The notes: generated from the letters alone by a model not told the origin. Shown: positions 301 through 52,425, counted from the stretch's first letter. The stretch: 64,000 bases of DNA from an uncultured Alphaproteobacteria bacterium (GCA_944391375.1 CALXTJ010000001.1:49729-113728); one strand, 5' to 3'. Program-made: numbers and translations.

Positions 301-3300
301 ATGAGTAAAGAAGTTCTGACACATTCCGAAAGATATGTACGCAAGACCAATAGAATAATTTTAATCGTTGGTATAACCTCATTTGTGGTATTTCTATTCG
401 GCCTGTTATTGTTATTTTCCAGCGGCACGACGGAGAATGAATATCAGGAGCCGGTATTTACCGAAGATGACAGTGCCATCAATTTCGGAGAGGATCGCAA
501 TCCGTTATTGGACACAATAGAATTTACGGATGTGGAGGAAAAAGATTTACCGATAACCACTACGCCCAATCCTATAAGTATGGGCCAGGTTGTTTTGGGT
601 ACCGATGCTAAAAATGTTTTAACTATAGGCACCAACGGAACAACACCGATAAGAGTTGTTTCGGTCAAATTGGCTGAGCCGCCGTTTGAAGGTTTTACCT
701 TTAGTGACGGCTGTACAAGTGCGGAATTACGAGGCAATCAGACCTGTAATGTAACCATGAACTGGGTTCCGGTAACAGCCGGTAATGTACAAAACAATTT
801 TATTGTTTCGTGGCATGAGGCTAATGTCAGTGCTCAAAATGCCAAAGCCCAGAAAATTCCGGTTGAAGGTAAAGCAGTTACCAAAGAGGAATGCAGCTCA
901 TGCAGTACGGTAACGGGTATTCCGGATGCGGTTCAGGTTATCAAAGATGAAAACGGCAATATCATCGGGTACATAACATCCGACGGTAAAGCCGTTGATT
1001 TAAATGGCAATGAAATCGGTGTCGTACAAGGAGATGTTGTCGTTGATGAAAACGGTAATGTTATAGGTAGGATTAGTGCCAATAATGACAATGTAAGAGT
1101 AGCCTACGGACCGGATGGAAAAGTAATCGGTTATGTAGATAAAGACGGCTATGTCAGAGATGAAAACGGCAATATTATCGGTCGGGTCAATGATGAGGGC
1201 TTAATCGTTGATGAAAACGGCAATATTATCGGAGTGGCCGGTAACGAAAAATTAGTTTATGATGAAAACGGTAATGTGATAGGTTACGCCACAACAGACG
1301 GCAGGGTCATAGATTTTAACGGTCGGCAAATAGGCCGGGTAATGCCGGATGGCACGGTAGTAGATGCCAACGGAGCAGTAATCGGCAAAGTCGTTGAATC
1401 GGGATATGTTTACGATGAAAACGGTAATGTCATCGGCCGTGTTTTGGAGGACGGAACGGTAGTTGATAAGAACGGTAATGTCATCGGCAGGCTGAACGAA
1501 AACGGTGAAGTGGTAGACATGAACGGCAATGTTATAGGCTATGTCAGTAAGCCCGGAAGGACGGTTACGGATGAAGACGGCAATGTTGTGGGAGTGGTCA
1601 TGCCCGATAATTCCATTGTAGATGAGAATGGTAATATTGTAGGGTATGTGGATGAAAACGGGGAGGCTTATGCTTTAAGCGGTGAAAAAATCGGCAAGAT
1701 GGGACCGTCACGAAGGTTATATTATGATGAAAACGGTAATGCGATAGGGTATATAGATGAAAACGGCAACATTGTTGATTTTAGCGGCAATACCATAGGT
1801 AAAATACTGGACGACGGCACGGTTTTAGATGCTCAAGGCAATGTTATCGGTAAGATGTTGGAAGACGGAACCATTGTTGATAAGGACGGTAATGTATTGG
1901 GCAAAGCCGGCGACTATGTTAATTTAGCGGTAGATGAAAACGGCAATGTCATAGGTTACATAAACAAAAACGGCGAGGTGATAGACAGAAACGGTAATGT
2001 CATCGGTCGTGTTGATAAAGACGGCAACATTATCAGTAATAAAGCAGTTCGGATAGGGGCGGTAGTACGGACGGAGTTAATACCGGTTACGCCTTCGGGT
2101 ACGGTACTTGGCAAAGTATCTTCCACGGGAGAAGTTGTTAATGAAAAGGGCCAGAGTTTGGGCCGTATTTTACCCAACGGTTTGGTAAAAGAAGCCAACG
2201 GCTCCAAGTTTATAGCCAAAGGAGTTAAGGGCGGACTGGTTGTGGGCTGGGGCTGTTCTCAGGTAGGAACGCTCGGAGAGGACGGAATTGTTCGTAAAAA
2301 CGGCCAAGACATGCCTTATAAAATTACTCCCGACGGAGGAATTTATGATGATAAGGGCATGTATCTGGGCGAAGTTGTAAAAACCGGAAAAGTTTTTGAT
2401 AATCAATGTAACTATTTGGGCACGGCCAATGAACGCGGCATAGTCCAAACCGACAACAAAAAATATGTCGGATGTGTAAATCCGGACGGAAAAGTATTAA
2501 ATGAAAACGGCGATATTATAGGTAAAGTGGCCGAATATAAGTTTGCGGTTAATGAAAAAGGGGATTATGTTGGTTATTTAAATGTTAATGGACAAGTATC
2601 CGGAAGTTCTTTATTGCCGGTAGGTTGTATGAATACGGACGGGGAAATATTCAACTCGGAAGGGGAATATATAGGCCGGCAGGTTGATAAATTTTACATT
2701 TTCAGCTTAGACGGTAAATTTATGGATACCGTATCCCGAGACGGAAAAATTGATATCAAAGGCACCCCCGGAGCCAAGCTGTTTTTGCAAAAATATATAG
2801 CAGACGGCAATAACAAAATCATAGGCGTAGCTTATCCGGAAAGGAACAGAATAATCAATGCCGACGGCAAAATAATAGGCCAGTTGTTCGCAGATGGTAA
2901 TATTTATGATGCCCAAGGAATGGTTGTAGACAGGATTTATGGTGAAGGATTAAGTTTTTATGGTGGGCGAGCCGGAAAAATTTTACCTTACGGAAAAGTT
3001 GTCAACACTAAAGGCCAAGAGGTAGGGTTTGTAAATCCTGACGGAAGAGTTCTCAGTCGTTTCGGTGAATATTTCGGAAATATTGACACTAAGGGAAGAT
3101 GGTTTAATCTTAAAGGAGAATACTCCGGAGGGGTGGTCCATACGGGGGCCGGTATCGGTTATGACGGTTCTTACTTAGGTTACGCTTCACATTCGGGAGC
3201 CATAATCGGTTCCGGAGGAAAGATAAACGGTTACGGCAACGGTGCGGGTTTAATTTTAGATGCCAACGGAAAAGTTTTGGGCGATATAGTTGCGTCCGGA

Positions 3301-3921
3301 GCAGTAGCGGATTTATTTGGAAAATACAGCGGTTATACAGATGTTAAAGGTAATGTGTATGACTTAAGTAATAAATTTGTTACGGCGGTATTACCCGGAG
3401 GCTCAACCGATAAAGGATTGAGTATGTTAAGAAGAGGTATTGTCATTAACTTTGGCGGCAATGTTATAGGAGCGGTATATCCTGATGGATCGGTTATCAA
3501 TACCCAAAATGTAATTATCGGCAAGGTTTATTCCGACGGCAAAGTTGTCAATGAAAAAGGTGAGCTGTTAGGTGAAGTTGCCGAAGGCGATATAGTAATA
3601 GACAATGCCGACAAAGTAATTGGTTATGTAGCTTTTGACGGCAGTATCCGCGGTCAAGATAACGGCATTATCGGAAGATTATTATCGGGAGGTTTGGCGG
3701 TAGATAATCAAAATAATATTTTAGGTAAAGCCTATCGTATCGGGGCTTCGGTAGTATCCAATGACGGAGCTTATATCGGGTATCTTTCATCAGACGGCAA
3801 GGTTATCGGCAATAACGGAGAAAATGTCGGTTATTTAAAAAACAACGGTTCGTTTGTTGATTTAGATAAAAAAGTTGCGGGATATGCTTTGCAGGAAGTG
3901 GCACAAAATCGGAGGAATTAA
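301..3921 (+). CDS. 1206-aa bitopic membrane protein with an N-terminal TM anchor, an Ig-like segment, and about 55 degenerate 17-aa DENGNVIGxVxxDGxV repeats
   Basis: The ORF has a Shine-Dalgarno (AAGGTAAA) upstream of the ATG. Residues 1-20 are hydrophilic and followed by a TM segment (IILIVGITSFVVFLFGLLLLF). Most of the remainder is a repeat with a 51-nt period, and the DNA motif gatgaaaacggYaatRtYatMgg recurs at 946, 1045, 1159, 1210, 1261, 1414 and beyond. Confidence 0.85.
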   Translation: MSKEVLTHSERYVRKTNRIILIVGITSFVVFLFGLLLLFSSGTTENEYQEPVFTEDDSAINFGEDRNPLLDTIEFTDVEEKDLPITTTPNPISMGQVVLGTDAKNVLTIGTNGTTPIRVVSVKLAEPPFEGFTFSDGCTSAELRGNQTCNVTMNWVPVTAGNVQNNFIVSWHEANVSAQNAKAQKIPVEGKAVTKEECSSCSTVTGIPDAVQVIKDENGNIIGYITSDGKAVDLNGNEIGVVQGDVVVDENGNVIGRISANNDNVRVAYGPDGKVIGYVDKDGYVRDENGNIIGRVNDEGLIVDENGNIIGVAGNEKLVYDENGNVIGYATTDGRVIDFNGRQIGRVMPDGTVVDANGAVIGKVVESGYVYDENGNVIGRVLEDGTVVDKNGNVIGRLNENGEVVDMNGNVIGYVSKPGRTVTDEDGNVVGVVMPDNSIVDENGNIVGYVDENGEAYALSGEKIGKMGPSRRLYYDENGNAIGYIDENGNIVDFSGNTIGKILDDGTVLDAQGNVIGKMLEDGTIVDKDGNVLGKAGDYVNLAVDENGNVIGYINKNGEVIDRNGNVIGRVDKDGNIISNKAVRIGAVVRTELIPVTPSGTVLGKVSSTGEVVNEKGQSLGRILPNGLVKEANGSKFIAKGVKGGLVVGWGCSQVGTLGEDGIVRKNGQDMPYKITPDGGIYDDKGMYLGEVVKTGKVFDNQCNYLGTANERGIVQTDNKKYVGCVNPDGKVLNENGDIIGKVAEYKFAVNEKGDYVGYLNVNGQVSGSSLLPVGCMNTDGEIFNSEGEYIGRQVDKFYIFSLDGKFMDTVSRDGKIDIKGTPGAKLFLQKYIADGNNKIIGVAYPERNRIINADGKIIGQLFADGNIYDAQGMVVDRIYGEGLSFYGGRAGKILPYGKVVNTKGQEVGFVNPDGRVLSRFGEYFGNIDTKGRWFNLKGEYSGGVVHTGAGIGYDGSYLGYASHSGAIIGSGGKINGYGNGAGLILDANGKVLGDIVASGAVADLFGKYSGYTDVKGNVYDLSNKFVTAVLPGGSTDKGLSMLRRGIVINFGGNVIGAVYPDGSVINTQNVIIGKVYSDGKVVNEKGELLGEVAEGDIVIDNADKVIGYVAFDGSIRGQDNGIIGRLLSGGLAVDNQNNILGKAYRIGASVVSNDGAYIGYLSSDGKVIGNNGENVGYLKNNGSFVDLDKKVAGYALQEVAQNRRN
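940..2040 (+). repeat. Best-conserved block of in-frame tandem 51-nt (17-aa) coding repeats, VxDENGNVIGYVxxDGx
   Basis: Spacings between successive gatgaaaacgg motifs are 99, 114, 51, 51 and 153 nt. More degenerate copies continue to about 3850 and recur across 4020-6900 in the next gene. Confidence 0.85.
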
Positions 3922-3922
3922 A

Positions 3923-6900
3923 GTGTTTGATAAGTCGGTAAAAAAAATAAAAGCACTGGCGGCGGTTATTGCAATCATGTTAATAACGGTCAGTCCGGCG
4001 TTTTCACAAGAAATTACGGCCATCAATTTTAACGGCGATTTAATCGGAAAAGTAATCCCCGACGGAACGGTAGTAAGTTTTGATAACGAAATTATCGGCA
4101 ACATAACGGCCGACAGCTTTATTGTCAACGGCAAGGGAGAGTTGATAGGCGGTATAGTTCCGCAAGGAGTGGCCATAGGCAATGACAATAAATTATTGGG
4201 CAGAGTAAGCAACGACGGTACGGTTCGTCTGCCTTCGGGTAAGATAGTCGGTAAAGTTTTGCCGACATCATTGGTGGTAGATGATGCGTACAACATTTTA
4301 GGTTCGGTTTTATATCCGGGCTTGGTTTATGATGATGAAGGAAAAACGGTCGGACGCTTAACCGGCGACGGTTTATACATTAGTCTTGAAAGTCAAAACA
4401 TAGGTTTTGTTTCGGCCACCGGCCATGCGTATCGTAATACCGGTAAAGGATTTATTTTAGACGGTAAGTTAATATCTTCCAAAATGGTAGTTTCGGCAGA
4501 AGGAAAATTTATCGGCAGCATTACTGCCGGAGGTGTAGTTACCGATTTTTCTTCAAATCCGCTCGGCCAAGTTCATGCTAACGGTTATGTATATGATAAA
4601 AACAATCAAGTTATTGGTAAGACGATATCTAAGGGGTACGCTTTTGACAATTACGGTCAGTATTTAGGTTTGGTAACTTATAACGGTGAGGTTTTAAGCC
4701 AAGGAGATATTAAAGGTCGGCTTCGTGCGGACGGAAAGATTATCAACAACGAGGCACAGGTAATAGGTTTTGCCATAGATATTTCGGCAACAGCTTCGGA
4801 TTTTAACGGCAAATATTTAGGAAGAGTAATTCCCGGAGGTCAGGTTGTTTACTCCGGAGAAAGCGTTGGAACGGTAGGTGCCGGAGGCTACATTTGGAAT
4901 AAAGACGGAGCAGTTATAGGTCGGATTATAAAACCCGGTCCGGTATTTGACTATTTAGGAGAGTTAAAAGGTCAAACTGCTTATAACGGTACGGTAGTAT
5001 CATTGCTTGGAGCACCGATAGGTTATGCCAAAGGCAAGATTGCCTATGATAATATAGGTCGTATATTAGGTTCGGCAATGGACAGTGTACTGGTTTATGA
5101 TAATGCGGACAGATTGTTGGGTTTAAGCGGTATAGGTTCGGAAATAAAGGCCAACAATCAAATATTCAAGGTTTCGCCTTTTGGATATGTTTATTCTGCG
5201 GACAATTTACTGGCCGGCCATACGGTAGATATTGATGCGGTATATGATGAGGCGGGTCGTCCGCTGGCTTATATAGGAATAAGCGGAGAGTTACAAAATA
5301 TTCCGGCGGAGAAAAACTATCAAATTACACAGTTCGGCTTGGTTACGGATAGCACCAACCGTTTACAGGGAGCTCCGATTAAGCCGTATTTTGCGGTAGG
5401 TGAAGACGGTCGTGAATTAGGGGTTCCGGCTCAAAACAATTTGTTGCTTGATAAACAACGCAAGGTAAGCGGAAAAATAGTTCCCGAGTATAAGGTTACG
5501 GCAGATACAGAAAACGGAAACAACAATCAAATGCCGATAATCGGCGGAGTTGGCCGTTTCAATTTAGCTTTAGGTATCGGAGGGGATACTTTGGGCTATG
5601 TAGATTTAAGCGGTAAAGTTCGTGATTATTCCGGTAATGTTATAGGACAGGCCTTAGGCGGTGAGACTATAGGAGATGTGAAAAAATCGGTTATCGGTAA
5701 GGTAATGGATTTGCAAGGAGTGGTAAATGACCAATGTTCTTTTGTAGGTATTGTCGGCCAAAAGGGAGAAGTTCGCAACAGCCGAGATGTTATTTTAGGC
5801 AAGATACTAAACAACAATCAGGTTATTTCGGAAGTTGGGAATGTGGTTGGTTTTGGTGTACCGATGGGTTTGGTAACTGATTTTACCGGTAACAGTATCG
5901 GCCATGTGAATGCGTTAGGGCGAGTAATCAATTATAATCGCGAAGACTTGGGTTGTATCCGCCATGATGGCCGTTTGTATGATAAAGACGGAAAATATTT
6001 AGCTCGCAGGGTAGTTACATCACCGATAATGAATTTTGAAAATCAGATTATCGGCCGCAGCAATCTTAACGGCAGAATTATAGATGAAAAGAGTGCGGAT
6101 ATAGGCTATATTACGCCTGATGGAAGTGCAGTATCTTCACAAGGCACTATTTTAGGTACGACATTTAATTACAAAGTGGCATTCAGTGAAGATAACAGCT
6201 TTTTGGGACGAGTTTTGGAAAACGGCACGGTGGTAAGCGATAAAGATGATGTTTTAGGTAAGGTATTATTTGACGGAACCGTAGTAAGTGAAGACAAACC
6301 GATAGGATATGCGTTATACGATTTTTACATATATGATGGAGCCGGCAAAGCCATAGGTTATTTATCGGGAAGCGGGGAAGTGCTTAATTTTGCAGGCAAT
6401 AAATTAGGCCGAGCCGATAAGGGATTTTTAGTGGATGCGGAAAAGGATATATTAAGAGGCCGAGGCCGTCGGGATTACTTTATTCGTGATGACGAAAATA
6501 AAGTAATAGGAGAGTTATCATTAAACGGCGAAGTTATCGGATTAAACGGTAAGACGGTTGGTAAATTGGGCAGTAACGGTGAAATCCTAAGCGATTCCGG
6601 AGAAGTTATCGGCAAAGCCCGCGAGTTACAATATTACACCATAGAAAAGCCCGAGCCGGTTAAGCCGGCAGATTGGGCAACAACCCAAAGAGGCAAGAGC
6701 GATAACATCCAAATGGAAGCCGTTCCGGTAGCGGAAGAAACCGAAGAAAGTAAGTACGGATTAAAGACGGTAGGTATAGCATTAACCCCCGACGGTAACT
6801 ATTTGGGAGATATTTTAGTCAATAATGATGTTATAGATAAGTTAGGTAATTTAATAGGCAAAAAGATGCCTGACGGCTTGATAGTAGACAATCAGGGAGG

Positions 6901-43323: not shown

Positions 43324-44262
43324 CTACTTATCAGCGAATTGTTCAATAATTGACAGTTGCCCAGATTCAATTAGTTTATTCATGTATTTTCTTTTCACTT
43401 CGTTAATAAAATCTTTTATAGCCTCAGGATGATTCTTTAAAAACCATTTTATATGATTTTCAATATAATTTAACCTTATAACATCATCATTTAGATCGTT
43501 AGGTATGCGTTTCATTCTTTCATCTATACTATCAAAACCTTTAAATGGCAAAGATAAACGTGTTTTTGCTATTTGTATATATTCTGGGTTTATATCAATA
43601 CCTATGGCTTTTCGGTTTGTTTGTTGGCAAACTCTTAAAAGAGTTCCGCTTCCAACAAAAGGATCTAGAATTATATCATTTTCATTTGAAGAAGTCAGTA
43701 CAATCCTTTCATAAAGACCTTCAGGCTTTTGAGTTGGGTGTAGCTGTCTGTTTTTATTACAGTAATGCATATGAGAAAATTCCCATACATTTCCCGGATT
43801 TGCCCCTCTCATATTATTGATAGAGCGATAAAATTTTTGAGGGACTCTAACAGCATCAATATTAAACACATATTTGGATTTATTTTTTGTAAAAAATAAA
43901 ATATCATCATGTCTTGGCGAGAAGCCTCTGGTCTTTCCAATGCCTTGGGTATAAAACCAGGTAATCCAAGAATTAAAATATAAACCTAATTCTTTTTCCA
44001 TAATTACATAAATATAAGATATATATTTCATTCCCATAAAAACATATATTGAGCCGTTTTTAGAAAGTATTCTGTAGGCTTCTCTAAGCCATTCCCTAGA
44101 AAACTGTATATACTCTTCAAAAGCCAAGCAATCTTGGTTATTCCCATAATCCTTATTTAGATTGTACGGAGGATCCGTTACAATTAAATTTATACTTTCT
44201 GTAGGAATTTTTTTCATTTCATCAATAGCGTTTCCACAAATTAATTTTAAGTTTTTATCCAT
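43324..44262 (-). CDS. Beta-class N4-cytosine or N6-adenine DNA methyltransferase
   Basis: Motif IV is IVTDPPYN near the N-terminus, motif I is DPFVGSGT near the C-terminus, and an HPTQKP motif is present. The gene lies in AT-rich DNA. Confidence 0.8.
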   Translation of the reverse strand: MDKNLKLICGNAIDEMKKIPTESINLIVTDPPYNLNKDYGNNQDCLAFEEYIQFSREWLREAYRILSKNGSIYVFMGMKYISYIYVIMEKELGLYFNSWITWFYTQGIGKTRGFSPRHDDILFFTKNKSKYVFNIDAVRVPQKFYRSINNMRGANPGNVWEFSHMHYCNKNRQLHPTQKPEGLYERIVLTSSNENDIILDPFVGSGTLLRVCQQTNRKAIGIDINPEYIQIAKTRLSLPFKGFDSIDERMKRIPNDLNDDVIRLNYIENHIKWFLKNHPEAIKDFINEVKRKYMNKLIESGQLSIIEQFADK

Positions 44263-45011
44263 TTATTTTTTTTTGCCTCTCTATAAAAATCTTCTATAGT
44301 TCTCCTTGAGGAATGAAGGTATTTTTTATCTAATAACTGACACATTTCCCAAGTGGTTCTGTACTGATAAGTTACATAATGTATATCTTTAATCTGGATT
44401 TGTCCTGTTCCTAAAGCAGGATTATAACTAATATCATTATCCCCAATATACTTTAGATCGTAGGCATTATAGCCTACAATTTCCATTACTCCATCCACTA
44501 ACCCTGAATTTTCATTACGTTCAGAATAGACTTTATGTTTTATTGATAATAAGATAAACATAAAATCAGGATCTTTTACATATGAAGTGCGAATACGAGA
44601 AAAAGAAGTTATATTAGGACCTCTACCGCTATTAGGTATATCATTAGCTGTAGCTTTAACATCTATATTTCCTGTCAAGACTCTATCATCTTTTCTGAAT
44701 TGTAAAATAATGTCTGCCATTCCTAAACGTTCTTGTGTTTCAACATTAATAAGAGCATAGATATTATCTTTTGAATCTCTTATACCAGAAAAAACCTCAC
44801 CAGCCCAAGCCTCTACCATAGGTCCAGCAATTTTATTTATATTTTCAAGAGGTAGTCCTAATTTTAAATTAGTGTTTATAACTATCTTATTGTCACGAGC
44901 ACTTTTTCTTTCATCTAAAATATGTATAATTTGCTTCACTACAAAGTCTGAATCCTCTTTGTATGAGGCAGACTCTTTGGGTATTTTAAAAATCATATCT
45001 TCATATTTCAT
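44247..45011 (-). CDS. Putative type II restriction endonuclease paired with the methyltransferase
   Basis: A 254-aa orphan ORF immediately upstream of the MTase, overlapping it by 16 nt. It shares the AT-rich composition and I recognise no family. Confidence 0.5.
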   Translation of the reverse strand: MKYEDMIFKIPKESASYKEDSDFVVKQIIHILDERKSARDNKIVINTNLKLGLPLENINKIAGPMVEAWAGEVFSGIRDSKDNIYALINVETQERLGMADIILQFRKDDRVLTGNIDVKATANDIPNSGRGPNITSFSRIRTSYVKDPDFMFILLSIKHKVYSERNENSGLVDGVMEIVGYNAYDLKYIGDNDISYNPALGTGQIQIKDIHYVTYQYRTTWEMCQLLDKKYLHSSRRTIEDFYREAKKNKWIKT

Positions 45012-47365: not shown

Positions 47366-48502
47366 ATGAAAAGATATATATTTATTTTAGCTTTACTGGC
47401 AATGGGTTGCACTCAGGCTCAAGCCCGAAGTTTAGAAAAAGACTATACAGATTTTAAGGACTGGCTAAACAAAACTTACGGTCTTGATTACGGAATAGAT
47501 ATAAGCGTAACCGGCCAAAGAGGAGCTCCGAGCGGCAAAAACAATGCCGTGCAGACTTATATTTATCCGTATTTAACCTGGACCAATTTTGATAATGAAT
47601 ACGGCACGGGTTCATTAAACATGGCTTATAACATTGTTCGTTACGGCAATCATAATTCTGCCGACATTGATAATAACATAGGTGTGGTAAATGCCATTAA
47701 CGACTTTGATGATAACGCCAATGAGTTTGTAGAATTTTATTATTCATGGCAGCTTGGCGGAGATTGGGATTGGCTGACCTTAAATGCCGGACAATTTCCG
47801 ATATATAACTTTGACGGAACAGCCTATGATGCCAATCAGCAAGTCAATTTTATAAACTATGCTTTATCCCAAAACGCCAGCTCCACTTATTCCACGGCGG
47901 GTATAGGCTTTTTTGCCGAGATGGCTCCCAAAGGAGATTGGAGTTTTGCCATCGGTGCCCAAGATGCAACCAATGTAGACGCTCCGAGTATTAGGGTAAA
48001 CGGCATACACGACAAGCATTATACAACTTTTGCTCAAGCAACTTACGCTCCGACCAACAGATTAGGTGATGCCGAGGTTTCGGTTTTGGTATATAATCAA
48101 CCATGGGTAAAAGAGCAAGCCCAAACTACCAACGGTTGGTCCATCAATCTATCACAGAATATCGGTGAAAAATGGAGTGTGTTCGGACGTATTAACGGAG
48201 TATCCGGAGATGTTGCGGAAATAGAGCAGTCTTGGGTAGCGGGTGTTGTCTGGTTAAATCCATTAAACCGCAATAGCTTAGATCAAATCGGTTTAGCGTA
48301 TGCTTATAATAAGCTCAATGAAGAAGCGGTCGGTGAGCCCTTGGAGCATGATGCCGAACAGGTAATAGAGGCTTATTGGGCATGGGGAATTTCTAAATAT
48401 ATGACAATAACGCCCGATGTACAATTTTATATCAATCCGGCGTTAAATCAAAAATCTGATTATGCCACGGCGTTTTCGTTAAGGTTTACGCTTTTCTTAT
48501 AA
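47366..48502 (+). CDS. Putative outer-membrane porin (OprB-like carbohydrate-porin fold)
   Basis: A signal peptide (MKRYIFILALLAMGCTQAQA), a beta-strand-rich sequence with aromatic girdle residues, and a C-terminus …RFTLFL. Confidence 0.45.
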   Translation: MKRYIFILALLAMGCTQAQARSLEKDYTDFKDWLNKTYGLDYGIDISVTGQRGAPSGKNNAVQTYIYPYLTWTNFDNEYGTGSLNMAYNIVRYGNHNSADIDNNIGVVNAINDFDDNANEFVEFYYSWQLGGDWDWLTLNAGQFPIYNFDGTAYDANQQVNFINYALSQNASSTYSTAGIGFFAEMAPKGDWSFAIGAQDATNVDAPSIRVNGIHDKHYTTFAQATYAPTNRLGDAEVSVLVYNQPWVKEQAQTTNGWSINLSQNIGEKWSVFGRINGVSGDVAEIEQSWVAGVVWLNPLNRNSLDQIGLAYAYNKLNEEAVGEPLEHDAEQVIEAYWAWGISKYMTITPDVQFYINPALNQKSDYATAFSLRFTLFL

Positions 48503-48512
48503 GGTTGCCAAT

Positions 48513-48544
48513 AAAAAAGAGGCTAAATTTTAGCCTCTTTTTCA
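48513..48544 (+). terminator. Rho-independent terminator after the porin gene
   Basis: AAAAAGAGGCTA-AATTT-TAGCCTCTTTTT. Confidence 0.65.
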
Positions 48545-48670
48545 TACTACGGGAGTTGTAATAATTATCAAATATTTTTGGGGACAAATCGGAATAAATA
48601 ATATTTTTGCTTTACAAAACGGCATAAAAATGTCTAAAAATAAGAGATGTTTTTATATCAGGACAAATAC

Positions 48671-49213
48671 ATGAGAACTTTTATCAAGATTATGAGCATA
48701 ATGAGTTTAACATTTTTTTTAAGTTGTTGCCAAAGCTCAGATACCCCGTCACTTCTTCCGGGAATTGTACCGGCCGAACAGAAAACCACCATTATTAACA
48801 ATCGCCCGTCCAATATTATAGGTGCGGTAGAACCGATTTATATTTTACCGATGAAATCGGCGTTTGATGCCCGGATAGATACCGGAGCTACCACCTCATC
48901 ATTGGATGCCGACGATATTAAAGAGTTTGAAAGAGACGGTGAAAAGTGGGTTTCGTTTACCATTACCAACAGGCAGTCCGGCGAAAAGTATGAATTTGAA
49001 AAACCAATACTTAAGAGTGTAAAGATTAAAAGAATAGAAGACAGAGAGCACCGAGTAAAAGTTAATATGGCAGTAAGTTTCGGAGGTGAAAAGTTTACTG
49101 CAGAGTTTACTTTGGCCGACCGCGATAAATTTGAATACCAAATTTTAATTGGCCGTAATATACTAAGCGGCAGAGCCATTGTTGACACATCGGTTTCGCA
49201 CACTCTTAAATAA
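48671..49213 (+). CDS. Retropepsin-like protease (the Pfam family named 'putative ATP-dependent zinc protease'), first gene of the RimK-like cassette
   Basis: A lipoprotein-like signal (LTFFLSCC) and a DTGA aspartic-protease motif (RIDTGATTSSLD). Confidence 0.65.
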   Translation: MRTFIKIMSIMSLTFFLSCCQSSDTPSLLPGIVPAEQKTTIINNRPSNIIGAVEPIYILPMKSAFDARIDTGATTSSLDADDIKEFERDGEKWVSFTITNRQSGEKYEFEKPILKSVKIKRIEDREHRVKVNMAVSFGGEKFTAEFTLADRDKFEYQILIGRNILSGRAIVDTSVSHTLK

Positions 49214-49228
49214 TAAGGGACAGAGGCT

Positions 49229-50761
49229 ATGAGTAAATTTTTTACGGTGCGTAAGGTTTTAACTTTATTTTTGGTATTATCGGTTATCTTTGCGGCATTC
49301 AGTGCTTACTATAAAATCAAGTATTGGGGTTTTGATTTTAGGCCTAATCGTACAACTAAAGTTTGGAATATTGATGCCAACATTACTTTTGAACCGACCG
49401 GAGAACCGATAAGAGTTTCTTTAGGGGTACCCAGCAGCGGCGATGAGTTTAAAATTTTAAATGAAGATATTCAGGCCCGAGGGTACAAAGTTACCAAAAA
49501 CACCCAAGAAAATCGCGTAGAATTCAGTTCATCTGCCAAGGAAAAAAGTCAAAACTTATATTACCGATTGACAATATATGATAATGAAGACGGTAATGGG
49601 AAAGTAAGAGAGGCTAAAGTTGCAACTCCTCGTAAACCGCTGTATGATGAACAGCAACGACAAATGGCAGAAGAAATTTTGACTGAAGCAGGTAAATTGC
49701 AGGGTTCCTGGCCGCAAAAAATTATTCAAATATTTAATCAAGAGCCGATGAATCCGACCTTAAACGCCTTTTTGCCGGTAAAGATGAATCAAAAGCAAAG
49801 AGCTGATAAAATTATTGAACTGCTGGCGGTAAAATCCATACCGGCTCGTTTGGCCCGAGGGGTGCGTTTGGAAGAAGGCAAACAGGCAGCCGAAGCTGAC
49901 TTAATGATGGAAGCTTATGACGGTAACAAGTGGATGTTATATGATTTAAATACCGGAAAAGAAGGCCTACCTAAAAACTTTATTATCTTTCAAAGAGGAG
50001 GGACATCTTTATTGGATGTAAGCGGAGGAGAGGATTCTAAGGTACGATTTTCAGTATTAAGGTCGGTTGTTTCCTCATTTAAAATGGCCGCGCACCGTTC
50101 GGAGTTAAACAATTATAAAATAATGTTTGATTATTCCATTTATAATCTGCCGTTACTGGAGCAAAATACATTAAAGTGGCTGATGGTTTTTCCTTTAGGT
50201 ATTTTAATAGTAGTTTTAATGCGAAATATTGTCGGTATTAAAACCATGGGAACATTTACCCCGATGTTAATTGCCATGTCGTTGGTTAAAACCGGATTTT
50301 GGGCAGGTTTGGTAAGTTTTTCGGTGATTATAGCTATCGGACTATTGTTAAGAGCCGTATTGTCCAAACTAAATTTGTTATTGGTACCCCGAATTTCGGC
50401 AGTGGTGATATTCGTTATTCTGATTATGCAGTTTATGACTATTATCGGCTATCGTATGAACTGGAGCATTGCCTCATCGGCGGTATTTTTCCCGATAATC
50501 ATTACGGCCTGGATTATTGAAAGAGCCTCTATTACCTGGGAAGAAGAGGGAGCAGGCAACGCCGTATCGGAAATTTTTTACAGTATGGTAACCGCGGTTG
50601 TTACTTATTTGGTAATCAGCAATGAGTATATTCGCCATATTACTTTTGCGTTTGATGAAATCAATTTGGTGATATTGTTTACGGTAATGTTGCTTGGTAC
50701 ATATACGGGCTACCGTTTAACCGAATTAAAAAGATTTACGCCTTTAGCCAAGGGGGAATAG
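49229..50761 (+). CDS. Inactive transglutaminase-like domain fused to 7 TM helices
   Basis: A 510-aa protein with an N-terminal TM, a soluble domain of about 250 aa, then 7 hydrophobic helices (…LMVFPLGILIVVLMRNIVGIKTMGTFTPMLIAMSL…). Confidence 0.65.
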   Translation: MSKFFTVRKVLTLFLVLSVIFAAFSAYYKIKYWGFDFRPNRTTKVWNIDANITFEPTGEPIRVSLGVPSSGDEFKILNEDIQARGYKVTKNTQENRVEFSSSAKEKSQNLYYRLTIYDNEDGNGKVREAKVATPRKPLYDEQQRQMAEEILTEAGKLQGSWPQKIIQIFNQEPMNPTLNAFLPVKMNQKQRADKIIELLAVKSIPARLARGVRLEEGKQAAEADLMMEAYDGNKWMLYDLNTGKEGLPKNFIIFQRGGTSLLDVSGGEDSKVRFSVLRSVVSSFKMAAHRSELNNYKIMFDYSIYNLPLLEQNTLKWLMVFPLGILIVVLMRNIVGIKTMGTFTPMLIAMSLVKTGFWAGLVSFSVIIAIGLLLRAVLSKLNLLLVPRISAVVIFVILIMQFMTIIGYRMNWSIASSAVFFPIIITAWIIERASITWEEEGAGNAVSEIFYSMVTAVVTYLVISNEYIRHITFAFDEINLVILFTVMLLGTYTGYRLTELKRFTPLAKGE

Positions 50762-51718
50762 ATGTTTGCGTGGTTAAAAAAATTTAGCCGACCGTCAGCT
50801 CTTAAAGCCAACGGAGTTTTGGGCATGAATGCCCGTAATTATAAAATAATTGCCCGTTGTAACAATCGTCGTTTATATCCCTTGGTAGATGATAAAGTTC
50901 AGACGAAACGGTTGGCAGACAAGGCCGGTATTAACACGCCGCATTTAATCGGGGTTATAGAATACCAACATCAGGTAAAAGATTTTTTGGAATTGGTAAA
51001 AAATCATCCGCAGTTTGTAATTAAGCCGGCACACGGCAGTGGCGGTAAGGGCGTGTTGGTAATTAAACATTGGGATGACGACTGCTTTGTTACGGCCTCA
51101 GAAAGAGTTTTAACATTTAAGGATGTGTACCAGCACATATCCAATACATTAAGCGGATTGTTCAGTTTGGGCGGACAATATGATGTTGCCTTAATAGAAG
51201 AGATGGTAAATTTCAGCGATATATTCAAAGATTTCAGCTATCAAGGTGTTCCGGATGTGAGGATTATTGTTTATAAAGGCTATCCGGCGATGGCTATGAT
51301 GCGATTGGCCACGGCAGAATCCGGCGGCAGAGCCAATTTGCACCAAGGTGCGGTAGGGGTCGGCTTAGATATTAAGAGCGGTAAGACCTTAAATGCGGTA
51401 ATGCACAATTTGCCGATAAGCGTTCACCCTGACACCAAGGCCGATTTAAAAAGTTTGGTAGTTCCGTTCTGGCGGGAGCATTTAATTATCGGAGCCAAGG
51501 CCTATGAGATGACAGGCTTAGGGTATTTAGGGGCAGATATTGTGTTGGATAAAAACCGCGGTCCGATGATGCTGGAATTAAACGCCCGCCCGGGACTGGC
51601 CATTCAAATAGCCAACGGTAAGGGTCTGGTTGAAGTGATAAAAAAAATAGATAAGACCTATCCTCAAAATTTGACGGCGGAAGAAAGAGTTGATTTTATC
51701 TTGAATATGAAAAAGTAA
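50762..51718 (+). CDS. RimK-related alpha-L-glutamate-ligase-like ATP-grasp enzyme
   Basis: …GMNARNYKIIARCNNRRLYPLVDDKVQTKRLADKAGINTPHLIG… with an ATP-grasp fold. The start codon abuts the previous stop (TAGATG). Confidence 0.7.
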   Translation: MFAWLKKFSRPSALKANGVLGMNARNYKIIARCNNRRLYPLVDDKVQTKRLADKAGINTPHLIGVIEYQHQVKDFLELVKNHPQFVIKPAHGSGGKGVLVIKHWDDDCFVTASERVLTFKDVYQHISNTLSGLFSLGGQYDVALIEEMVNFSDIFKDFSYQGVPDVRIIVYKGYPAMAMMRLATAESGGRANLHQGAVGVGLDIKSGKTLNAVMHNLPISVHPDTKADLKSLVVPFWREHLIIGAKAYEMTGLGYLGADIVLDKNRGPMMLELNARPGLAIQIANGKGLVEVIKKIDKTYPQNLTAEERVDFILNMKK

Positions 51719-51764: not shown

Positions 51765-52370
51765 ATGACAGAATTACTAAAAAAATCCGAAACTAAAAAT
51801 TTAGGTAAGTCGGAAACCAAAAATTTAGCGGCTGAGGACAAAAAGCAGTTGGGCATGAGTGAAACGCGTGCCAAGAAAATAAAACATTCATATAAAGTAA
51901 AAGATGCGGAGAACTCGCTGTTGCTAAAGCTCAAAGACGGCGATGTGGTAATAGAGATGTATCCTGACGAAGCTCCTAATCATGTTGCCCGTATCAAAGA
52001 GTTGGTAAGACAAGGATTTTACAACGGATTAAAGTTTCATAGAGTTATTGAAGGCTTTATGGCACAAACCGGCTGTCCGTTAGGAACGGGTACGGGCGGC
52101 AGCGGCAAAAAATTGAAAGCCGAATTTAACCGCAAGCCGCATTTAAGAGGCACGGTATCTATGGCCAGAGCCATGGATGTAGATTCGGCCGACAGTCAGT
52201 TTTTTATTTGTTTTGCCGATTGCCCGTGGTTAAACGGACAATACACCGTATGGGGCGAAGTAACCTCCGGTATGGAATATGTTGATAATATTAAAAAAGG
52301 CGGCGGTGCTAACGGAATGGTAAGCTCACCTGATGAAATTATCAGCATGTCGGTCATTGCCGATTTGTAA
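51765..52370 (+). CDS. ppiB: Cyclophilin-type peptidyl-prolyl cis-trans isomerase with an N-terminal tandem duplication
   Basis: …FHRVIEGFMAQTGCPLGTGTGGSG… The N-terminus contains KSETKNLGKSETKNLA, encoded by a direct repeat at 51786-51833. Confidence 0.85.
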   Translation: MTELLKKSETKNLGKSETKNLAAEDKKQLGMSETRAKKIKHSYKVKDAENSLLLKLKDGDVVIEMYPDEAPNHVARIKELVRQGFYNGLKFHRVIEGFMAQTGCPLGTGTGGSGKKLKAEFNRKPHLRGTVSMARAMDVDSADSQFFICFADCPWLNGQYTVWGEVTSGMEYVDNIKKGGGANGMVSSPDEIISMSVIADL

Positions 52371-52388: not shown

Positions 52389-52425
52389 CAAAAATGAGCC
52401 TTAAGTTTTTTAAGGCTCATTTTTA
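52389..52425. terminator. Bidirectional terminator between ppiB and topA
   Basis: Perfect 15-bp inverted repeat AAAAATGAGCCTTAA-GTTTT-TTAAGGCTCATTTTT. Confidence 0.7.

Follow-up and report, generated by a model that had tools for sequence, protein, structure and literature searches.

The stretch of DNA considered here, a 64-kb window from an uncultured gut alphaproteobacterium (all coordinates count from the window's first letter), carries on its + strand a compact cassette of three co-directional genes that encode a retropepsin-like protease, a polytopic membrane protein and an ATP-grasp ligase (Table 1), and that we refer to, by their homology to a Pseudomonas operon, as rloA, rloB and rloC. 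Open reading frame (ORF) calls bear out an initial annotation of this DNA, which had described three tightly packed genes at 48671-51718 with a TAGATG junction at 50759-50764: rloA and rloB are spaced by 15 nt, the rloB stop TAG (50759-50761) abuts the rloC ATG (50762-50764; junction GGGGGAATAGATGTTTG), and the rloC ribosome-binding site (RBS; AAGGGGGA) lies within the 3' end of rloB. An alternative in-frame ATG for rloA at 48647, which would give 188 residues instead of 180, lacks a well-spaced RBS; 48671 is the better start, because AGGA lies 7 nt upstream of it and because the ortholog in the closest relative (locus L001) begins at the equivalent Met. The GC content of the cassette (0.37-0.42) is the same as that of its flanks, the opposite strand holds only short unsupported ORFs, and within the 64 kb there are no further copies of rloA, rloB or rloC and no rimK or rimB paralogs.

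Table 1. Features of the rlo cassette and its immediate surroundings (window coordinates; aa, amino acids; TM, transmembrane; 7TM, seven-TM).
Feature	Position	Strand	Description
OprB/AaxA-like porin	47366-48502	+	378 aa from MKRYIF... start; PF04966 5e-19
Terminator-like hairpin after porin	48514-48542	+	13-bp stem, -15.5 kcal/mol, z = -4.2
rloA	48671-49213	+	Retropepsin-like (clan AA) aspartic peptidase, 180 aa, predicted lipoprotein
RloA signal peptide, residues 1-18	Cys19 at 48725-48727	+	Lipobox FLSC; by motif
RloA catalytic D70-T-G-A	48878-48889	+	Clan AA active site
rloB	49229-50761	+	510-aa inner-membrane protein
RloB regions	residues ~7-33; ~34-305; 306-510		TM helix; Cys-free transglutaminase-like periplasmic domain; 7TM_transglut and conserved tail
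rloC	50762-51718	+	Cytoplasmic ATP-grasp ligase, 318 aa, alpha-L-glutamate-ligase-like (TIGR02291 / ATPgrasp_ST)
ppiB-like cyclophilin peptidyl-prolyl isomerase	51765-52370	+	201 aa, PF00160 2.9e-42
Putative bidirectional terminator hairpin, ppiB / convergent topA	52390-52424	.	15-bp stem, -18.3 kcal/mol, z = -7.7

Profile searches of the kind that the initial annotation had suggested, against Pfam and TIGRFAM, assigned all three of the families it had named. RloA, which it had called a DTGA-motif retropepsin-like lipoprotein, matches PF05618 (Zn_protease, since renamed RimB-like; 1.3e-31) and has both the DTGA and a lipobox; its further matches, to the NCBIfam models RloA3, RloA2, RloA and RimB, stay under the narrow cutoffs of those models. 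RloB, read as a transglutaminase-like domain joined to seven TM helices, matches PF14400 (Transglut_i_TM, 4e-27) and PF14402 (7TM_transglut, 2e-84), and spans positions 9-507 of the 508 in the NCBIfam RloB model (E = 4e-84). RloC, taken for an alpha-L-glutamate-ligase-like ATP-grasp enzyme, matches PF14397 (ATPgrasp_ST, 8e-89) and scores 421 bits, over a cutoff of 314, against TIGR02291, 'alpha-L-glutamate ligase-like protein'; its scores against the RimK-family model TIGR00768 (44 bits, cutoff 143) and the S6-glutamate ligase model PRK10446 (24 bits, cutoff 331) fall under the cutoffs. We take the high cutoffs of NCBIfam 'equivalog' and 'exception' models to be set for close relatives, and the sub-cutoff scores of RloA and RloB show divergence, not non-homology.

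The operon whose name we use, rlo, is the retropepsin-like osmotic-stress-tolerance operon of Pseudomonas, described for P. aeruginosa and P. fluorescens. A purely computational gene-neighbourhood prediction of amidoligases by Iyer, Abhiman, Burroughs and Aravind, in Mol Biosyst in 2009, reportedly covered the same triad, and is said to be the origin of PF14397, PF14400 and PF14402; both PMC12239564 and PMC12096838 cite it. Genetics, structures and in vitro protease specificity have been added since that prediction. In P. aeruginosa the triad was named rloA-rloB-rloC (PA14_41690/41710/41730, equivalent to PA1768-PA1766; Lormand et al., mBio 2025, PMC12239564), and earlier screens had already picked up PA1766-PA1768. 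Pseudomonas RloA is a secreted, dimeric, retropepsin-like protease of which crystal structures exist; it has a positively charged substrate channel and in vitro cuts runs of at least eight Glu, the substitutions R114A and R137A causing the strongest loss of poly-Glu cleavage among those tested and failing to complement (PMC12239564). The triple protease mutant of P. aeruginosa (delta-rloA1-3) dies in hypo-osmotic medium, and the protease-null state brings biofilm, beta-lactam and cell-shape defects too; deletion of rloB or rloC rescues the osmotic phenotype fully and the other phenotypes partly (PMC12239564). An exopolysaccharide phenotype has also been reported for Pseudomonas mutants, and a Shewanella rloB-type mutant over-produces membrane vesicles. 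Poly-Glu cleavage, hypo-osmotic lethality and suppression by rloB or rloC loss are known only for Pseudomonas (PMC12239564), and a literature search for later biochemical work on either RloB or RloC turned up nothing beyond the mBio paper, its preprint and the paper on RimB.

We partly rebuilt P. fluorescens RloA from the alignment of PDB 9g58, used it to find Pseudomonas RloA proteins, and compared the window with a Pseudomonas chromosome locus (L081). Gene order and Pfam content are the same, and the products measure 178, 511 and 328 aa there against 180, 510 and 318 aa here, with identities of 31% for RloA (160 aa, 1e-19), 30% for RloB (509 aa, 2e-78) and 46% for RloC (322 aa, 2e-98). On this comparison of sequences the window cassette is an ortholog of the Pseudomonas rloABC operon: the two share order, sizes, domain architectures and full-length colinear homology, with an exported RloA bearing DTGA and the poly-Glu-binding basic residues, a Cys-free RloB that combines transglutaminase-like and 7TM parts, and an ATP-grasp RloC of the TIGR02291 family. 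They differ in host, a gammaproteobacterium there and a gut alphaproteobacterium here; in the export of RloA, type I secreted in Pseudomonas but a predicted lipoprotein with a type II signal in the window; and in RloA itself, which in the window has neither of the two Pseudomonas disulfide cysteines nor the C-terminal tail and has a flap nine residues shorter. A probably co-transcribed cyclophilin and an upstream porin accompany the window genes, whereas the Pseudomonas locus has neither, and the 64 kb hold one rloA copy as against three paralogs in P. aeruginosa.

A scan of genomes (one per species) with an RloB alignment as query yielded 304 confirmed stretches, the best 80 of which we analysed as loci. 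Nearly all carry the labels of uncultured Alphaproteobacteria from gut or rumen, Candidatus Scatocola, 'Acetobacter sp. CAG:977' and 'Azospirillum sp. 51_20' among them, and the samples behind the clade come from human, ruminant, horse, rabbit and chicken; the RloB of the nearest representative is 88% identical to that of the window. Of the 80 loci, 78 have an RloA homolog immediately before rloB and 79 have an RloC homolog immediately after it; where a neighbour is missing, the locus is cut off by a contig end. The triad is a core chromosomal, syntenic locus of this large uncultured gut alphaproteobacterial clade. Since the 80 loci represent a single clade, we extended the comparison to distant lineages through a library of representatives of 50%-identity clusters, in which the RloB family comprises 411 clusters at E <= 1e-30. 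Outside the clade, the nearest RloB proteins come from genomes labelled Victivallales or Victivallaceae (41-43% identity) and from the planctomycete Mucisphaera calidilacus (38%). These Victivallales-like and Mucisphaera loci keep the same order of protease, transglutaminase-7TM and ATP-grasp genes between unrelated flanks, with rloB and rloC overlapping by a few bases. The core unit is the three genes, conserved together across distant lineages; in agreement with the idea, already present in the initial annotation, that they form a unit, they travel together and not separately in the 80 related genomes and in three other lineages of phylum or class rank.

Several of the more distant or oddly labelled loci have features of their own. 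L004, L050, L056 and L064 show the ruvA, porin, rloABC, ppiB synteny yet are labelled Lachnospiraceae, Eubacteriales or Bacteroidaceae, and P0241, an RloB 52% identical to the window protein, is labelled Lactobacillales; all are probably mis-binned or mislabelled contigs of metagenome-assembled genomes. In the Victivallales-like loci a Polysacc_synt gene (Wzx-type flippase family) directly follows rloC (L083, 7543-8880; L084, 7543-8877), which may hint at a connection with surface polysaccharide, although the other lineages are without it. In Mucisphaera calidilacus (L085) an EAL-domain gene at 2050-3126 lies ~1.3 kb upstream of rloA, parted from it by two opposite-strand genes; it brings to mind the rim locus, where rimA is the EAL phosphodiesterase, though this may be coincidence.

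RloA finds its structure matches in PDB 9g59, 9g58 and 2pma, and the 9g58 alignment also served as a check of its residue numbering. The N terminus, MRTFIKIMSIMSLTFFLS followed by the Cys (...FFLS-C), fits the lipobox pattern, the signal being judged by motif, and a short basic N terminus, a hydrophobic stretch and a closing Cys recur in all 79 clade orthologs (79/79). Lipoboxes are also present in Victivallales-like (LAGC) and Mucisphaera (GVGC) RloA, whereas the Pseudomonas signal is of type I (...AIA-GEK). DTGA is kept in 78/78 aligned orthologs. The equivalents of the P. aeruginosa poly-Glu-binding residues K46, R114 and R137 are R68, R128 and R151 in the window protein, and each is Arg in 78/78; the positions equivalent to R92 and K97 are K or R in 69/78 and 70/78, respectively. 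We infer that window RloA is a lipid-anchored periplasmic protease with a Pseudomonas-like preference for acidic chains. In clade RloA orthologs the linker after the lipobox Cys (window 48728-48800) carries a conserved (I/V)VP(A/G)(I/V)VP...QK or VPAVEV motif, which is not in Pseudomonas RloA P0122. The window RloB shares more identity with its counterparts in Victivallales-like bacteria (41-43%) and the planctomycete (38%) than with the one in Pseudomonas (30%). These distances, together with the lipoprotein, disulfide-free RloA that the three nearer lineages have in common, suggest that there are two old subtypes or else that the genes were transferred between gut bacteria.

RloB has zero cysteines, and so no transglutaminase or papain-like chemistry. 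Its periplasmic part has a fold match in 3ISR, a transglutaminase-like structure from Cytophaga hutchinsonii. Compared with this and another solved transglutaminase-like protein, the TgpA periplasmic domain (6G4H), RloB differs in that Cys-His-Asp chemistry is impossible in a Cys-free protein, which rules out RloB as a catalytic transglutaminase or a transglutaminase-like cysteine protease. An AlphaFold2 model built with 60 homologs has a mean predicted local distance difference test score of 79, and the structural matches of its 7TM part are weak and generic. We assumed a topology with the N terminus inside (K3, R8 and K9 precede the first helix), followed by a TM helix, the periplasmic domain and seven crossings, an arrangement that agrees with the positive-inside rule. 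Among 138 family members, 27-52% identical to the window protein, 41 positions are conserved at a level of at least 90%, 37 of them in residues 306-510 and the other 4 in the periplasmic domain. The presumed cytoplasmic face holds the majority of the conserved charged residues; the conserved polar residues R332, T342, R375, R388, E431, R432 and E439 would lie on that side, as would the tail Y495-x-x-x-E499-x-x-R502-F503. The tail, GYRLTELKRF, is nearly invariant across the family; the window protein ends ...KGE, and these last three residues are not conserved. This assumed arrangement suggests an RloB whose conserved working part is turned towards the cytoplasmic ligase, with the periplasmic domain as what would be a divergent binding module.

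RloC has neither a signal peptide nor a TM segment. Its ATP-grasp elements align with RimK structures, including a Lys and the Gly-rich loop FVIKPAHGSGGKGV, and it carries a RimK-type R-x-N-L-H-x-G motif and D...E-x-N metal ligands; its nearest solved relatives are alpha-L-glutamate ligases, the matches to RimK itself being weak. By these motifs the ATP-grasp signature of RloC is intact, and the protein is a relative of RimK.

The position of the cassette between a porin gene and ppiB, to which the initial annotation had drawn attention, is correctly described for the window but is lineage-specific synteny, since the flanks differ in other lineages. The porin scores 275 bits against the AaxA model, under its cutoff of 600; its ortholog in L001 likewise begins at MKRYIF, and a porin lies upstream of the rlo genes in 65/80 clade loci. 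The hairpin that follows the porin gene, set between an A-run and a T-run, folds better than 200 shuffled sequences (0/200 fold as well) and is predicted to separate the porin transcript from the rlo genes. On the other side, ppiB directly follows rloC in 74/80 clade loci; in the window the 46-nt spacer between them holds no stable hairpin (z = -0.9) and the ppiB RBS is strong (AAGGAAGGGA). The hairpin beyond ppiB, again unmatched in 200 shuffles (0/200), is the probable 3' end of a rloABC-ppiB transcript. Given the bracketing hairpins, the lack of one between rloC and ppiB and the strong ppiB RBS, rloA-rloB-rloC-ppiB is the likely transcript, with ppiB probably its lineage-specific fourth gene. 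As core parts of the system, porin and ppiB were rejected, both being absent from the Pseudomonas, Victivallales-like and Mucisphaera loci. We claim no promoter, because a consensus scan (19 sites, against 15.5 +/- 4.6 in shuffled sequence) did no better than on shuffled sequence.

The surroundings of the cassette vary. The cyclophilin has a K/E-rich N-terminal extension of ~50 aa (51765-51915) containing the direct repeat KSETKNLG KSETKNL, and tblastn matches to the full 603-nt ppiB indicate that most orthologs in the clade are equally long. Over its stretch 1880-5281, which we compared with 47366-48646 of the window, L001 has two tandem OprB/AaxA-like porin paralogs, against one in the window, and between porin and rloA an extra opposite-strand gene of 324 aa with no Pfam match, not in the window; many clade loci have a gap of 1.1-2.5 kb between porin and rloA. 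Further upstream in the window, a low-GC island on the minus strand (43324-45011; 0.30-0.31 against ~0.40-0.45 around it) holds an N6/N4 DNA methylase (PF01555, 4.5e-69) overlapping a 254-aa ORF without a Pfam match, and looks like an acquired type II restriction-modification pair beside ybgC-ruvB-ruvA.

What might these three products do together? We consider rloABC orthology, combined with a mechanism in which synthesis is opposed by trimming, the best explanation of the cassette, with a probability of roughly 0.6. The specific chain of events, from RloC synthesis through RloB transfer to RloA trimming, we put forward more tentatively, at slightly under even odds. RloC would use ATP to synthesize an alpha-linked poly-glutamate chain in the cytoplasm, as a free polymer or joined to a carrier; RloB would take up this product through its strongly conserved 7TM module and cytoplasmic tail and would pass it to, or present it at, the periplasmic side, its transglutaminase-like domain acting as a binding module; lipid-anchored RloA would then cut the acidic chain in the periplasm. 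The balance of synthesis and export against trimming would set an envelope property, for example periplasmic polyanion load or cell-wall homeostasis, and unopposed RloB and RloC activity would be harmful, above all at low osmolarity. The published epistasis fits such a harmful RloB/RloC-dependent product that the protease removes, and, by our own reasoning, a periplasmic polyanion would raise osmotic and Donnan pressure in the periplasm and would thereby account for lethality at low external osmolarity.

The mechanistic template for synthesis opposed by trimming is the RimABK (RimK-RimB) system, in which RimK makes poly-alpha-L-glutamate and cytoplasmic RimB is a poly-Glu endopeptidase (PMC11957791, a companion to the mBio paper). 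Both systems pair a RimK-superfamily ATP-grasp ligase with a retropepsin-like DTG protease that recognizes poly-Glu. RimK and RimB, however, are both cytoplasmic, act on RpsF and have no membrane partner, whereas in the window the protease carries an export and lipidation signal, RloB is a required partner and RloC scores under the RimK cutoffs. A bolder version of the proposal, which we regard as doubtful, would make RloB an unrecognised inner-membrane conduit for RloC-made poly-alpha-glutamate and, with RloA, part of a tunable periplasmic polyanion system for osmotic and Donnan balance, encoded in gut Alphaproteobacteria by a core four-gene operon with the cyclophilin; the lipoprotein, disulfide-free RloA, found in Victivallales-like and Planctomycetota copies too, would then mark a second, older subtype of the system. 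The idea of a conduit comes from a 7TM module without a convincing solved relative and from the invariant residues on the cytoplasmic face and tail of RloB.

Several points weigh against the mechanism we favour. The activities of RloC and RloB are predictions, and the RloC product is deduced; the Pfam family of RloC is named 'sugar-transfer associated ATP-grasp'; and rlo phenotypes are known from Pseudomonas, not from alphaproteobacterial copies. The curated NCBIfam cutoffs are missed (RloA3, 108 against 210 bits; RloB, 283 against 900 bits). The disulfide pair described as conserved in periplasmic RloA orthologs (PMC12239564) is absent from 78/78 clade orthologs and from the window protein: the Cys121 equivalent is Ser in the window and K, R or S across the clade, and the C-terminal tail bearing the second Cys is missing in 78/78. 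Without the Cys pair and with a flap nine residues shorter than in Pseudomonas, window RloA could handle substrate differently. The topology of RloB, finally, was drawn from hydropathy, the positive-inside rule and the AlphaFold2 helix list, not from model coordinates.

Other explanations share part of this evidence. It is unlikely, though deserving of thought, that the same rloABC ortholog acts on a protein, RloC adding a poly-Glu tail to a specific target, perhaps RloB or a protein destined for the envelope, and RloA removing or editing it, much as RimK and RimB do on ribosomal protein S6. RimK does polyglutamylate a protein C terminus, RloA cleaves RpsF-8E in vitro, and the near-invariant RloB tail GYRLTELKRF is predicted to lie in the cytoplasm, where RloC could reach it, in a window protein that ends ...KGE; yet a periplasmic protease cannot reach a cytoplasmic tail, and the last three residues of RloB vary. 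Nor did candidate targets turn up: window ORFs of at least 80 aa contain no run of six or more D/E that would mark an encoded poly-acidic substrate, and no encoded periplasmic poly-Glu protein was found in P. aeruginosa (PMC12239564). We give rather little credence to a reading in which RloC joins an amino acid to an envelope precursor other than a protein—for instance a sugar, or a peptidoglycan or lipid-linked intermediate—that RloB flips or scaffolds, so that poly-Glu cleavage in vitro would not reflect the physiological substrate of RloA. The name of the top Pfam match of RloC, the flippase-family gene directly after rloC in Victivallales-like loci, the cell-shape, beta-lactam, biofilm and exopolysaccharide phenotypes of Pseudomonas and the excess vesicles of the Shewanella mutant would all suit it. 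Against this stand the poly-Glu-binding residues, needed in vivo in P. aeruginosa (PMC12239564) and invariant here, as well as the R-x-N-L-H-x-G motif of RloC and its kinship with solved alpha-L-glutamate ligases; moreover, the flippase-family gene is not adjacent in the alphaproteobacterial, Pseudomonas or Mucisphaera loci.

Two further readings we reject. That the cassette is a RimK/RimB-type system for modifying ribosomal protein S6, which weak RimK and RimB profile matches might suggest, is highly improbable: RloC reaches 44 bits where the RimK family demands 143, and 24 where the S6-glutamate ligase model demands 331, an export and lipidation signal marks the protease in 79/79 orthologs, the obligate third partner is a membrane protein, and Pseudomonas rimB and rloA show no genetic interaction (PMC12239564). 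Mere adjacency, by chance or shared ancestry and with no functional link, has next to nothing in its favour. All 80 loci of the scan come from one gut clade, and for that reason their synteny could by itself be inherited, but the gene order and the overlaps recur, between wholly different flanks, in Pseudomonas, Victivallales-like and Planctomycetota loci, and the published epistasis ties the three genes together.

With rloABC orthology and the opposition of synthesis and trimming as our preferred explanation, the picture drawn by the initial annotation changes in part. It had presented the system as uncharacterised, which is out of date: rloABC has been characterised (PMC12239564), and NCBIfam has RloA and RloB models. 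Its remark that no substrate had been defined experimentally still holds, in that no in vivo substrate is defined. It had also pictured a ligation system whose protease processes the product; the functional unit stands, and ligase and protease do belong to the same process, but the protease counteracts the RloB/RloC product, since rloB or rloC deletion rescues the protease-null state, and opposes it rather than maturing a ligation product.

The system has been known since 2025, and the locus in the window is a divergent gut alphaproteobacterial copy of it, whose variant features—a lipoprotein, disulfide-free RloA and a co-operonic cyclophilin—are of modest weight. It raises no new question and offers no easier test bed than Pseudomonas. 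In P. aeruginosa the rlo genes influence how well cells withstand osmotic stress and how sensitive they are to beta-lactams, as well as biofilm formation and cell shape; the present locus shows that the triad also occurs outside Pseudomonadota, and that RloA has a lipid-anchored, disulfide-free subtype. The comparison narrows down what the rlo system requires: the disulfide, the sequence of the periplasmic domain and the flanking genes vary, while the essentials appear to be, in RloA, the DTGA and three basic residues, in RloB, the 7TM module with the cytoplasmic tail, and, in RloC, the ligase core.

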